From assembly GCF_006345805.1 (NCBI RefSeq), contig NC_043011.1, positions 25,370,464-25,434,463 of the forward strand: DNA of 64,000 bases, read 5' to 3'. The notes under the pieces are model-generated. The model made no database searches. It saw only the letters and a program-made list of their open reading frames with translations, and was not told the origin of the DNA. Shown piece by piece: positions 359-20,301 of the stretch (its first letter is position 1; each line of letters starts with the position of its first letter). The stretch comes from Octopus sinensis (lineage: Eukaryota). The translations under genes and the position numbers were made by a program.

Positions 359-568
359 ATGAATGCAATCATGTGGTGATTCCAATACCAAAACAATTAA
401 ATGGTTCACAACATCAGACTTTTGGCAATACAAGTCTTGAAGATAGATGTTACAGCAATGACGATTGTCCTTTCCATGCTGACTGCCAACCTCGAAGTTG
501 CGATCTTTTCATTTGTATCTGTTCTGAAGGATATAGACAATCACCTGATAGGTCAAGATGTGTAAAAC
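359..568 (+). CDS. Gene 1 (Cys-rich EB/EGF-like single-pass membrane protein), internal exon type A: leading Cys + linker + 7-Cys domain; upstream exons lie outside the window
   Basis: tttcag| acceptor, |gtgaga donor, phase 1-1, 210 nt; translates ECNHVVIP...RCYSNDDCPFHADCQPRSCDLFICICSEGYRQSPDRSRCVK. Confidence 0.9.
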
Positions 569-629
569 GTGAGAATATTTAAGATTAATTTTACAATTTG
601 ATATTAGAATGTTTCATATTGTTTGATGA

Positions 630-1103
630 AATCGAAATTGGAATCAAATTCGATGACTGGCATCCGAGCTAGTGGAGTGCTAAGAGTACCATACAAACAA
701 GCTGGCCTCCGTGCCGATGGGCACGTAAAAAGCCCCATTCGAGTGTGATGGTTACCTGTGTCACCTTACTGGCACTTGTGCTGGTGGCACATGAAAAAAC
801 ATTCGAGCGAGGTCGTTGCCAGTACCACTGGACTGGTTCATGTGCAGGTGGCACATAAAAATCACCATTTGAGCGTGGCAGCTGCCACTATCACCTGTCT
901 GGCCCTCGTGCCGGTGGCACATAAAAGCGCCCACTATACTCTCGGAGTGGTTGGCATTAGGAAGGGCATCCAGCTGTAGAAACTCTGCTTGATCAGATTG
1001 GAGTCTAGTGCAGCCATCTGGTTCACCAGACCTCACTCAAAACGTCCAACCCATGCTAGCATGGAAGGCGGACGTTAAACGATGATGATGATGATGATGA
1101 TGA
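630..1103 (+). mobile_element. Copy of the RTE 3' UTR / RTE-dependent SINE with hairpin repeats and (GAT)n tail
   Basis: Shares gtggcacgtaaaa repeats and gtccaacccatgctagcatgg...taaacgatgatg end with 42230..42748. Confidence 0.85.
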
Positions 1104-1463
1104 TACCCCGCTATCTCAATAACTTGGTAATATTAATCTTATCTTTTTATCTTTCATTTTTTATTTGTTTTAGTCATTAGACTGTGGCCATGCTGGAGTA
1201 CCACCTTGAAGGGTTTTAGTTGAAAAAAATTCACCCCAGTATTTATTTTTAAGTATAATAATCATTCTGTTCTTTCAGTCTCTTTTGCTGAACTGCTAAG
1301 TTACGTGTATGAAAACAATCCCACACCACTTGTTAAGTGGTGGGGGAGGGGGACAAACACAAACACAAAGATGCACACGCTTAGCAGTTCAGTAAAAGAG
1401 ATCAGTGGAAAAAGTGCCAGACTTAAAGAAAACAAGTACTGGGACCTATTTGTTTGACCAAAC

Positions 1464-1828
1464 CAGGAGTCTCTCAACCATTTTCTATCTATGGACCCCT
1501 TTGATTACTATTTTATTCTGGTGGATCCCCATTGTCATTCAATGTTTAGAAACTAGTTTCAGAGAAACTTTTTTTCAAAATTCCTATTTTGTTCATCACA
1601 TATTAACTTGTTAAAATTGAACTAAATAAAATGTTAGAGAAAGAAACCTAACAATTCATACATCTAAAGCAAAAGAAACCTAACAATTCATAAAGCAACA
1701 TTTTTGAATATCATCAGGGGCCCTTAAAATACTATTGTGGATCCCCAATTTACTATTCCGTTGCATTGGCCTCCAAAAACCTTATATGGACCCTCAGGGA
1801 ACATATGGACCCCAGTTGTGAACTACTA
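1464..1828. mobile_element. hAT-type MITE inserted in a SINE
   Basis: Imperfect TIRs cagg...ctcaac / gttgtgaactacta; TSD gaccaaac/gactaaac (7 of 8). Confidence 0.65.
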
Positions 1829-2095
1829 GACTAAACCCTTCAAAGTTTTACCCCAGTATGGTTGCTGCCCTATGACAGAAACAACTAAAAAGAAAATAAT
1901 TAAAAAGAAAATAAACAAATTCAAAAACAAAACATGTGCATTCCATTGCCAAAAGTGTACACAAAACATACCCCATCAAAATTACCACCCCCCAAAAAAT
2001 AAACAGAAAACAAAATAAACTAAATATATAAAACATATATAGTAAGTATAGGAAACATAATAAAATGTGTTTTATTTATTTCTATGTCTTTTTAG

Positions 2096-2398
2096 TGTCC
2101 AAGCTTGGAGAGTCATGTAATAGTGACCTAAACTGTCCAAATGAATTTGCAGAGTGTACTTCTGGACAGTGTGTGTGCAAAGAGAATTTTTCACCAGTCT
2201 CAGACATGTATTGCAAGTATGCCGGAACTGTTGTTTATGGAGATGCTTGCAATGCCACTAATTCTTGTACTTACCCAGATACTGAATGTAATAATCGCTC
2301 ATGTCAGTGCCAAGAAAACTTCCGAGAGAAAACTGCCCAAGAAAGTCGTTCTTTTCCCGAGTTGATGTTTAGTTGCATCAAGAAGAATTTTTCATTAA
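2096..2398 (+). CDS. Gene 1 exon type B (two 6-Cys EB-like repeats)
   Basis: tttag| acceptor, |gtaaat donor, phase 1-1, 303 nt, 12 Cys (SKLGESCNSDLNC...SCIKKNFSL). Confidence 0.9.
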
Positions 2399-16954: not shown

Positions 16955-17222
16955 TTTAACGTCCACTTTCCATGCTAGCATGGGTTGGACGATTTGACTG
17001 AGGTCTGGCGAACCAAATGGCTGCACCAGGCTCCAATCTGATCTGGCAGAGTTTCTACAGCTGGATGCCCTTCCTAACGCCAACCACTCTGAGAGTGTAG
17101 TGGGTGCGTTTACGTGCCACTGGCACGAGGGCCAGTCAGGTGGTACTGGCATCAGCCACACTCAAATGGTGCTTTTCATGTGCCACCTGCACACAAGCCA
17201 GTCCAGTGGCACTGGCAATGGC
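16955..17222 (-). mobile_element. Truncated copy of the same RTE 3' end, next to a (CCA)n tract
   Basis: Reverse complement of the family 3' end. Confidence 0.8.
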
Positions 17223-17989
17223 TGAATATTAATATTATCAAGAAATTAAATAATATTAATATTATTAATGTAATATTTGATACCAACCTTCCCCAAATCA
17301 CCCTTGTTTCTATGACGTAAACATCATCTTTAAAAATTACCCTAATTAAAACCTTCCATTAAAATTTCATGTTAAATTATGTTCTAAACAACAGTTTAAT
17401 AATGGCAGTTATTGTATTAAACAGTAAACAAATTAATAAAGAAAAGCTGAGTATTTCAACAGAGATATGGTAACAAAAAGGGTTAAAAGTTATCAATATA
17501 ATTCACACAGCCAGATAAAGATAATATCCTCAAGTATTGATAGTACAATGAGTTGAAAAAAACTTTGATCAGTTGAGATTATCCATACAAGTAGTATTTA
17601 AAACTCACTCTGGGATTATTTCATATCTAAAGACCAAAGGAGCAAAATAAGATCAGTTGATTAAAATTTTTCCAGCCACATGGTTTAGGGTTCAGTTCCA
17701 CTGCGTGACACGTTGGGCAAGTGTCATCTACTATAGCCTTGGGTTGACCAGAGCCGTGTGAGTGGATTTGGTAGACGGAAACTGCTTGTCACACACACAC
17801 ACGTGTGTGCGTGTGTGTATGTATCTATGAGTGTGTGTCTTTGTGTCTAAGTTTGTCACCCATCACCACCCCTTGACAGTCAGTATTGGTGTGTTTACAT
17901 CCCTGTAACTTAGCAGTTCAGTAAAAAAAAAAAAACTGATTGAATAAGTGCCAGGCTTTAAAAATGGTGCAGAAGCTGCGACAGACAGT

Positions 17990-18450
17990 CCCTGCCATCA
18001 GAGAGAGACCATGCTGGTTGGGGTTCAGCAGATTGTTGTCTTTGAGGAAGTGGGTTATTCACGATCTCACCACCCTCTCAAGTACTTTAATGATTTGAGA
18101 GGTGAGTGAAATCGGATGGTAGTTCACAGCAAGAGATTTGTTTCCCTTTTTGAAAACTGGAATGACAGACTGGGAAAGAAAATGATCAGGAATATAGCCT
18201 GTGCCAAGTGAGTTTGTTCAGAGCTCAACTAGAGAGGGTGCAATTTGATGTCGACACATCTTCCGGACAGTGGCTGGGAACCTATCGGACCTACTGCCGA
18301 GTTGTGCTTGATCTTATTTATTTCTGTTAGGATATTAGGAGCGCCAAAAGTAATGTCAAATATAGTTAGTTGAGGGTTTATATCACTGATGCTAGCCAGA
18401 TCAACTGCATTGGGGTTATTGAAAACAGAGCAGTATTGTTTCAGCAGCAT
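17990..18450 (-). mobile_element. CR1/L2-like LINE RT fragment
   Basis: Minus frame VIPVFKKGNKSLAVNYHPISLTSQIIKVLERVV, typical non-LTR pre-RT motif. Confidence 0.8.
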
Positions 18451-19388
18451 CTCGCATAAGCCTGTATAAAGGGCAGCAAACTTAAGGGTTGCTCCAGGCA
18501 GCCTGCATTCTAGCTACGAGCCATTACTCTATGACTCTGTAAAAAACAAAAGAAGAAAAAATATCAGATAAGGGAGATAACTCACATCAGATTAATTAAT
18601 GGAAACTGGAGAAGACAATTTTGAGTGAACTTGATCGTTAGAGCTAAATGGTGAAAAGAACAGACATATCTTAGTCTTGATTTGAATACAAAGAGTGATC
18701 ACTTATATATATTGAAACAGAGAAAATGTTGTGTTCTGATTATTAAATCATCAATATAGCTATGGAAAAATACTTCAGCAGTGTATTCTGTAAATTAAAT
18801 ACAAATATGGTAGGGTCTCACATATGCAATATAACATTAAAATTCTGCTGAAGTTGACTTTGCCTTTCATCACTTCAGGGTTGATAAAATAAGTATCAGT
18901 TCAGCATTGGGGTTGACGAAATCCATTTTCCCCTCCCTCAAAACTGCTGGCTTTGTTGCAATGTTAGAAAGAATTATATGTAATACTTCCACTACTTTCA
19001 GTACTGAGTTTATATACACATGTATTGTACTTATTTACAACCAGATGGATTTATCCAGTGAGTGTTTGACCCAAGGACACTGTATTTAGCAATGATGAGA
19101 CTGAAGTCTTTTGCCTTTTAGATAATATTTTAATTTCACCCCCTTGGACCTTAACCAGCTGTGTCTTTCAAAGCATCTAGTGTGTTCAGTTGTAATGGGA
19201 TTTGAACTGAGAACAACAAAGACTCGACAAGAAACCATAAATATGGTTTCAAATTTTTTCACAAGGCCAGCAATTTCAGGGTGGTGGACAAGTTGATTAC
19301 ATCAACCCCAATCGAAGACTATTACTTTCCACATATATATTAGAAATGAATACTTGTTATTATCACTGCGTTTGTTACAATATTGCAG

Positions 19389-19473
19389 ATCATGTACTTG
19401 CACCAATTGCTGCTGCAGTTTTAATTCTGCTTCTTTTCATTGCAATAATGGTTTATTCCAGAAAAAAATGCAA
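19389..19473 (+). CDS. Gene 1 transmembrane exon
   Basis: ttgcag| acceptor, |gtaagt donor, phase 1-2; DHVLAPIAAAVLILLLFIAIMVYSRKKC = hydrophobic helix plus basic stop-transfer residues. Confidence 0.88.
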
Positions 19474-20258
19474 GTAAGTATATACTTTTTTATCCAATCA
19501 AAATATATTTCCTATTGAACATAATGTAATATCTACCTTGGTGAAAATAGTGAACTTGCAGACTTAATAACTTCATGTGTTTATTAGTTATATAAAAATA
19601 GTTTATATAGAACTATTATATATAACTGCCATCTCAGAAGAGTACAGGGTTATATAACCGGGCTGTTGTCTAATACTCCATTGAAGCCCTAGTATGAAAC
19701 TGAGCGGTAAGATCTGTTGTAATGATATAATACTGTACAATTCAATTAATATATACACTCTATTGTCAAATATATGAGCGCATATTTTTTCTGACTTATG
19801 GATTCTTTGATGCTCTCTCTCTCTCTCTATATATATATATAATATATACCTTATATAATTTACACTTATGTAATAAAAGTTATCATCTTTAGAATGTCAT
19901 GAGGTGCTTCAAATTTGGAAAGCTCACTCAGGTGTAGGACATGCACACATGCACGCATGCATGCACACACACACACACACACCACACACACACACACACC
20001 ACACACACACACACACACACACACACACACACACACACACACACACACACACACACACAGTTTCTGGCACAGAGTTTCAGTCCTATTGAATTCTGTTCCA
20101 TAAGTATTTTCAATCTATATTCACAGATGTTTTCTATTATGTTTAAGATTTTCTGCCTTGGTTAAAGAAGCTGTAAAAAAAAAAAAAAAAAAAAAGCAGA
20201 CCCTTTGCTTAAATGTTTCAATCTACATTCATTGAAATAGTTTGTTTTATTTCCCCAG

Positions 20259-20301
20259 TTCTCGCTCGAACATTGAGAGACGAAATCCTTCACGATTATG
20301 A
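20259..20301 (+). CDS. Gene 1 last coding exon, cytoplasmic tail NSRSNIERRNPSRL*
   Basis: tttccccag| acceptor; phase-2 continuation gives TGA at 20299-20301; AATAAA at 20341 and 20722 downstream. Confidence 0.65.

Follow-up and report, generated by a model that had tools for sequence, protein, structure and literature searches.

The genome of Octopus sinensis holds a gene whose product is built from a repeated, exon-encoded unit of 20 cysteines. The gene lies partly within a 64,000-nucleotide stretch of contig NC_043011.1 (RefSeq assembly GCF_006345805.1, forward-strand positions 25,370,464 to 25,434,463; hereafter the window, numbered from its first letter). Each unit, or module, spans ~145 residues with 7 + 12 + 1 cysteines. 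The longest RefSeq isoform, P0006 (1095 residues), consists of a signal-like stretch, five modules, a stalk with two cysteines, a transmembrane helix (at residue 1050) and a short tail. We are nearly certain that the 20-Cys module is an autonomous domain. It is an uncatalogued superdomain assembled from EB/EGF-like parts and likely held by a long-range disulfide clasp. On balance we favour a type I membrane protein whose five ~145-residue, 20-Cys units are compact, ring-closed binding heads in a cell-surface coat.

Extent and register of the module

The original prediction had read a pattern of seven, twelve and one cysteines three times in the window, followed by a transmembrane helix. This reading stands: the 7-Cys and the 12-Cys patterns each occur three times, and neither appears in 100 block shuffles. 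Across the ten exons first listed, the cysteine counts are 8, 12, 8, 12, 1, 7, 12, 2, 1 (cytoplasmic) and 0, and the first eight of these exons have lengths that are multiples of three and phase-1 ends. A leading cysteine in the first exon had been taken to imply at least one more module upstream. In fact two exist, bringing the total to five; their exons lie ~1.3, 4.6, 14.6, 18.4 and 29.3 kb ahead of the window.

Exons 359–568 and 6620–6868 carry eight cysteines each, so pairing within the same exon had to be excluded. We dropped this same-exon register (leading Cys plus seven) on four grounds: the start of module 1, the spacings, the structural model and the existence of single-module proteins. 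The 7 + 12 + 1 register, by contrast, is borne out. Module 1 follows the signal peptide directly and has no leading cysteine, nor is there any cysteine upstream of it in the mature chain. Cys20 stands 9 residues beyond Cys19 in all five modules of P0006. The spacer past Cys20 (55, 27, 40, 124 and 26 residues) is the only one that varies freely, the others being nearly fixed.

Relatives tell the same story. A phmmer search with a fragment from O. bimaculoides (P0007) against 1.84 billion representatives returned 101 matches, many of which cover query residues ~31–185, that is, one module. A profile made from ten Octopus and Argonauta modules then gave 90 near-full matches among 109 proteins, a set that leaves out 7 redundant Octopus isoforms and fragments. 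Removal of five plain EB arrays and one module without Cys19 left 84 modules in 42 proteins. The spacing from Cys7 to Cys8 is 9 in 81/81 modules, from Cys18 to Cys19 it is 21 in 76/84, and from Cys19 to Cys20 it is 9 in 40/58; the distance from Cys20 to the next Cys1 ranges from 9 to 311 residues (n = 28). In 16 of the 42 proteins a signal-like stretch is followed by a module within 39 residues. The chiton protein P0036 reduces the arrangement to its minimum: in 186 residues it comprises a signal-like stretch, one 20-Cys module and ~10 further residues.

Truncated relatives mark the same boundary. Of the module ends listed near a C-terminus, 19 in number once a looser match in P0010 is set aside, 16 show, just before Cys20, the residues expected from a phase-1 GT donor; the intron position there appears to be conserved. 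Apart from cysteine, the best-conserved positions include an Arg, a Thr, a Glu and a Pro in the Cys18–Cys19 loop, where Thr-x-x-Glu resembles a helix N-cap motif.

A probable disulfide clasp

The odd cysteine of the 7-Cys subdomain, Cys4, had been proposed to pair with the leading cysteine of the following exon, Cys20. The two are lost together in relatives, as this idea would lead one to expect. Both are present in 58 of the 84 modules and both are absent from 14, whereas four retain Cys4 only and one Cys20 only; the remaining seven are cut off before Cys20. In the chiton protein P0010 all 13 modules lack the pair, mostly with Pro in place of Cys4, and in chiton P0017 one module lacks both and two have both. 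The sequence-weighted phi coefficient for Cys4–Cys20 is 0.49, and the next highest is 0.25.

A structural model points the same way. AlphaFold2, applied to P0007 (module 3 of the O. bimaculoides orthologue, 45 alignment rows), gave predicted local distance difference test scores (pLDDT) of 91–98 over residues 31–180. The block around Cys20 scores 94, and the region of the upstream cysteine encoded by the same exon scores 50–57. A short turn capping a hairpin holds Cys4, and residues 156–161 form a helix. Two Dkk1 chains align with this model over 35–37 residues spanning positions 29/31 to 177 (root-mean-square deviation (rmsd) 1.6–1.7). These residues lie within ~50 residues of Dkk1's own chain, an indirect sign that the model has its tail next to subdomain 1. 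The module is thus predicted to consist of three EB/EGF-like subdomains, with a short helix in the Cys18–Cys19 loop and a C-terminal tail folded back beside subdomain 1. Cys4 at the hairpin tip would very probably bond Cys20 of the same module. A complex prediction of subdomain 1 with subdomain 3 plus tail, run without an alignment, scored 0.03 and is counted neither way.

Several results weigh against the clasp. Two chiton proteins, placed in a single clade by a quick-method tree, account for all 14 double losses, which therefore count as one or two events. With one entry per protein the association falls short of significance (p = 0.15), and five modules break the rule of joint loss. In a second model (P0008, module 5, 44 rows) the Cys20 block reaches a pLDDT of only 68, with a core at 84–97. 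Finally, the Dkk1 matches have Z-scores of 2.5–2.6, under any threshold for kinship.

Family range and domain context

Four mollusc classes and one annelid have the module, which is thus not cephalopod-specific; the original suggestion of a mollusc- or cephalopod-specific protein has to be given up. Among 20 matches looked up, 16 were named: the chiton Liolophura; the bivalves Argopecten, Mizuhopecten, Magallana, Potamilus and Sinanodonta; the gastropods Biomphalaria, Haliotis and Gigantopelta; and the annelid Owenia. A transmembrane-like stretch follows the last module in 23/42 proteins, and Ser/Thr-rich stretches, on which the module is carried as on a stalk, are found in 23/42. In some relatives the module is accompanied by LDLa or Sushi domains.

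Of the 23 proteins with a transmembrane-like stretch, 13 (P0012–P0015, P0017, P0018, P0021, P0034, P0037, P0046, P0048, P0066 and P0083) have a cytoplasmic [L/I]PRP motif, which may bind an adaptor. Liolophura sinensis has an expansion with close accession numbers (P0010, P0011, P0016, P0017 and P0036) that includes the 13-module protein of 18-Cys units and the single-module protein. Chiton proteins with 7 to 13 modules have many that are nearly identical, joined by Thr-rich linkers. Three short related proteins (P0086, P0098 and P0106) have Gly for Cys4 in the first subdomain and no middle subdomain, a possible shorter sister architecture.

Comparison with known families

A search with a single exon returned XP_036365455.1, 'fibrillin-1-like' of Octopus sinensis, which is this gene. 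The original prediction, which recognised no named family, needs one correction here: a RefSeq model of the gene exists, under a name that is automatic and wrong. No Pfam model covers the entire 20-Cys unit.

The closest likeness is to the Pfam EB module (PF01683, gathering cut-off 24.3 bits). All three 12-Cys exons, whose EB/EGF-like spacing had been remarked on originally, exceed this cut-off (Table 1), and P0006 as a whole scores 190.1 bits. In the Atlas, EB proteins form the nearest clusters (0.92 and 0.94). At E ≤ 0.001, EB is the only family in a Pfam scan of P0006, with no calcium-binding EGF, TB or laminin-type EGF. EB arrays are of the 'prion-like-(Q/N-rich) domain-bearing protein 25' type in arthropods and nematodes. 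The octopus unit differs from them: it always comprises three subdomains, carries a helix insert and has two additional cysteines; the plain EB arrays among our matches have short last loops and neither the extra Cys4 nor a trailing Cys20. The frames do not coincide either, since EB model positions 1–52 map to P0007 residues 60–115, straddling subdomains 1 and 2. Taken alone, the exons of the 7-Cys subdomains score 14.7, 19.1 and 24.3 bits.

With fibrillin-1, and with MEGF6 and MEGF10 (automatic names on chiton relatives), the shared feature is long Cys-rich extracellular repeats. Fibrillin, which we take to be a secreted protein of calcium-binding EGF and TB arrays with no transmembrane helix, is a poor match: EGF_CA reaches 11–12.8 bits against a cut-off of 27, and the octopus protein has a transmembrane helix. 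MEGF10, Draper and Nimrod presumably combine an EMI domain, EGF or laminin-EGF arrays and tyrosine-based tail motifs. None of these Pfam families is found in P0006, and the tail of isoform P0002 has neither NPxY nor YxxL. Drosophila Dumpy contains an EGF-DPY-EGF triplet, and it too repeats a multi-domain Cys-rich block in a membrane-anchored surface protein (DPY leads in the Atlas, 0.81–0.85). However, DPY gives a score in just one exon, 15.7 bits where the cut-off is 27, there is no ZP match in the Pfam scan, and we know of no end-to-end disulfide in Dumpy. SEA mucins differ as well, with no SEA match in the 35 proteins scanned and no Ser/Thr tract in P0006.

At the level of structure, the Plasmodium proteins Pfs25/Pvs25 and MSP1-19 have a compact closed arrangement of EGF-like domains. 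They recur as weak matches to single subdomains (Foldseek E 0.012–0.04; VIA Z 3.8–4.5), but TM-scores are at most 0.35 and the overall rmsd is >7 Å. We would read this as an analogy in packing, not as kinship. Foldseek gave nothing at E ≤ 0.001 and the fold searches nothing at Z ≥ 5, the list for the second model being filled by its transmembrane helix; these searches used models extending beyond a single module, and the absence of a match does not show a new fold. Searching the PDB by sequence gave 6 matches at E ≤ 1 (best 0.02), none of them meaningful.

In the literature covered, which excludes subscription journals, neither the module nor the gene turned up in any account, and the accessions were not mentioned. 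Passages of one study report EB arrays upregulated in Anisakis pharyngeal tissue (PMC5763927). Passages of another describe 'uncharacterized EB domain' genes tandemly expanded in Ostrea edulis, with 31 and 11 copies (bioRxiv 10.1101/2022.06.26.497633). The passages seen of PMC13425148 do not mention 'EB module'.

Proposed working and alternatives

How might such a protein work? We suggest that each module would be a rigid head closed to a ring by the Cys4–Cys20 disulfide, that flexible, glycosylated linkers would hold the heads off the membrane, and that the heads would bind an extracellular partner. P0006 has 29 N-glycosylation sequons, and its linkers are variable and low in complexity. A furin-type site is found in the linker between modules 3 and 4 in the three octopod species compared: RFKR in two Octopus species, O. 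bimaculoides among them, and RSRR at the aligned place in Argonauta. Cleavage here would release modules 1–3 as a soluble piece, because the site lies outside the clasp, and would leave a two-module piece anchored. The tail (~20 residues in isoform P0002, without NPxY or YxxL) has no catalytic or tyrosine motif, which makes adhesion or capture likelier than signalling by the protein itself. Judged from sequence features of this kind, a role in surface binding or adhesion seems probable. Three points count against the coat protein as we picture it: its signal peptide is assigned by hydropathy only, it has no mucin-type stretch by the threshold used, and it does not carry the [L/I]PRP tail motif of many relatives.

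The ring itself could be an illusion if Cys20 were to bond Cys4 of the next module or a cysteine of another chain, giving a chain of joined modules or a coat cross-linked by disulfides. Such bonds would account equally well for the joint loss of Cys4 and Cys20, and exons 359–568 and 6620–6868, each with an even number of cysteines, hold Cys20 together with the next Cys4. The furin site would then fall inside a disulfide loop and both pieces would stay tethered. We think this arrangement quite improbable. Module 1 has a Cys4 but no upstream partner for it, single-module proteins retain both cysteines, and Cys20 keeps its place relative to Cys19 yet lies 9–311 residues from the next module. Moreover, the model orders the trailing cysteine and not the one of the same exon.

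Clasped modules might also serve other ends. As a signalling precursor or co-receptor, the protein would yield its three-module piece to furin as a diffusible ligand, in the manner of EGF-family precursors. The EGF-like subdomains, the furin-type site in three octopods, the apparent single gene per octopus genome and the fusion of relatives to LDLa or Sushi all suit this idea, but every Pfam EGF family stays below its cut-off, a furin site outside the module is missing from most relatives, and the chiton proteins of 7–13 modules with Thr-rich linkers look structural. We consider it unlikely. That epithelia display the modules to inhibit proteases or to bind microbes strikes us as a long shot: subdomains weakly resemble squash, WAP and TIL families (E 0.005–0.15) and knottins (Z ~3), with every family score under its cut-off, and no conserved P1-type loop stands out, the top non-cysteine conservation falling on the helix loop (Arg, Thr, Glu and Pro). 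Passages of PMC5763927 do report that EB modules often accompany Kunitz domains in Anisakis pharyngeal transcripts.

The adhesive, ring-closed protein that we prefer could belong to something larger. It is conceivable, though we would not press the point, that the module defines an undescribed lophotrochozoan superfamily of ring-shaped heads, carried by a phase-1 two-exon cassette and forming, for surface recognition, a mollusc and annelid counterpart of immunoglobulin (Ig) or lectin heads; the octopus member would be furin-shed. Just as tentatively, the cassette may have been shuffled onto mucin stalks and LDLa or Sushi receptors, or be secreted alone, and the 18-Cys form of chitons might be a natural 'unclasped' variant.

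Gene structure, orthologues and a duplicated block

The exons of the window are listed in Table 1. The original prediction comprised all but exon 15130–15210, and its claim of a single open frame holds: AG precedes all ten exons, GT trails the first nine, and their splice encodes 687 amino acids and a stop. Four junctions are seen in spliced contigs from four public sequencing runs, which we guess to be RNA. Junction 568>2096 occurs in contigs of 2/4 runs and 2398>6620 in 3/4, the fourth run giving no contigs here; junctions 10669>13200 and 13500>15129 have one record each among the contig matches listed.

Table 1. Coding exons of the 20-Cys module gene within the window
Position	Strand	Content	Further evidence
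359–568	+	Cys20 of module 2 (codon 364), linker, 7-Cys subdomain of module 3 (odd Cys4 at 499)	
2096–2398	+	12-Cys part of module 3: two 6-Cys EB/EGF-like subdomains, helix-bearing loop between Cys18 and Cys19	EB 44.2 bits; both junctions seen in contigs
6620–6868	+	Cys20 of module 3 (6625), linker with furin-type RFKR (6694), 7-Cys subdomain of module 4 (Cys4 at 6799)	
7730–8029	+	12-Cys part of module 4	EB 33.3 bits
9362–9643	+	Cys20 of module 4 (9367), Asn/Asp-rich linker with several N-glycosylation sequons	
10459–10671	+	Linker end, 7-Cys subdomain of module 5 (Cys4 at 10608)	Spliced to exon 13202–13501 in contig
13202–13501	+	12-Cys part of module 5	EB 33.2 bits
15130–15210	+	Cys20 of module 5 (15135), Ser-rich spacer	AG/GT; absent from one RefSeq isoform
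16578–16658	+	Juxtamembrane stalk, two Cys (16583, 16610)	Both Cys kept in Argonauta
19389–19473	+	Transmembrane helix, basic stop-transfer, one cytoplasmic Cys	Helix pLDDT 90–96 in orthologue model
20259–20301	+	Last coding exon: 14-residue end of short cytoplasmic tail, stop	

Exon 15130–15210 is covered in 4/4 runs at a contig depth equal to that of exon 13202–13501. With it included, the 715-residue translation is letter for letter part of RefSeq isoform P0002. Isoform P0003 skips it and has the same splice as the original prediction, which leaves an odd cysteine because exon 16578–16658 carries two. The skipping isoform would use the first of these, again 9 residues past Cys19, and would leave one free cysteine close to the membrane. 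When both exons are present, the two stalk cysteines likely form a local loop. Exons 15130–15210 and 16578–16658 are both 81 nucleotides long and phase-1, with a cysteine at the same starting position. They are possibly a tandem exon duplication, either copy being able to supply Cys20.

The linker of exon 9362–9643 is built on a trinucleotide repeat, and its Argonauta counterpart is also Asn/Asp-rich; this acidic linker could possibly bind calcium. The second intron contains an exact 300-nucleotide direct repeat (4910–5209 and 5350–5649, spacing 440 nucleotides), which may be an assembly slip. Beyond the gene, at 20.3–64 kb of the window, all 10 frames of at least 170 residues are simple-repeat, and three shorter frames there match no Pfam family at cut-off.

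The gene has an orthologue in Argonauta hians, likewise of five modules and 61% identical. Searches of the O. sinensis genome for paralogues, whose counts are lower bounds, saw only this gene and its duplicate, and there is apparently one gene per octopus genome. The duplicate is part of a 141-kb block (window coordinates ~-73,300 to +67,500) that recurs as a whole ~175–176 kb downstream. Long pieces are 97–99% identical, and one piece of 57 kb has 65 mismatches and 188 gap openings. The first copy ends at a gap of 100 N (+68,081–68,180), and between the copies lies a further, inverted piece of ~33 kb. We infer that the block is an uncollapsed haplotype rather than two genes; the two RefSeq loci would come from it. 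One exon ahead of the window, at ~14.4 kb, is damaged in the window's copy: in the 12-Cys part of module 1, small indels that offset each other garble a few codons and cost the module a cysteine. This damage is likely a sequencing error; the downstream copy is intact here, and the shorter RefSeq models P0003–P0005 begin past the damaged point.

Implications

The architecture is well supported and its parts are familiar; the function rests on context. The same unit underlies many proteins of molluscs and annelids that at present carry the wrong labels 'fibrillin-like', 'MEGF-like' or 'EB domain-containing', and in the passages seen of the single mollusc paper that we found, EB modules are termed uncharacterised. 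If true, a disulfide that ring-closes three EGF-like domains would make an uncommon architecture, one that might serve as a stable scaffold. With a natural single-module protein of 186 residues and a natural 18-Cys variant at hand, the fold, the clasp and the ligand of this family are directly testable.

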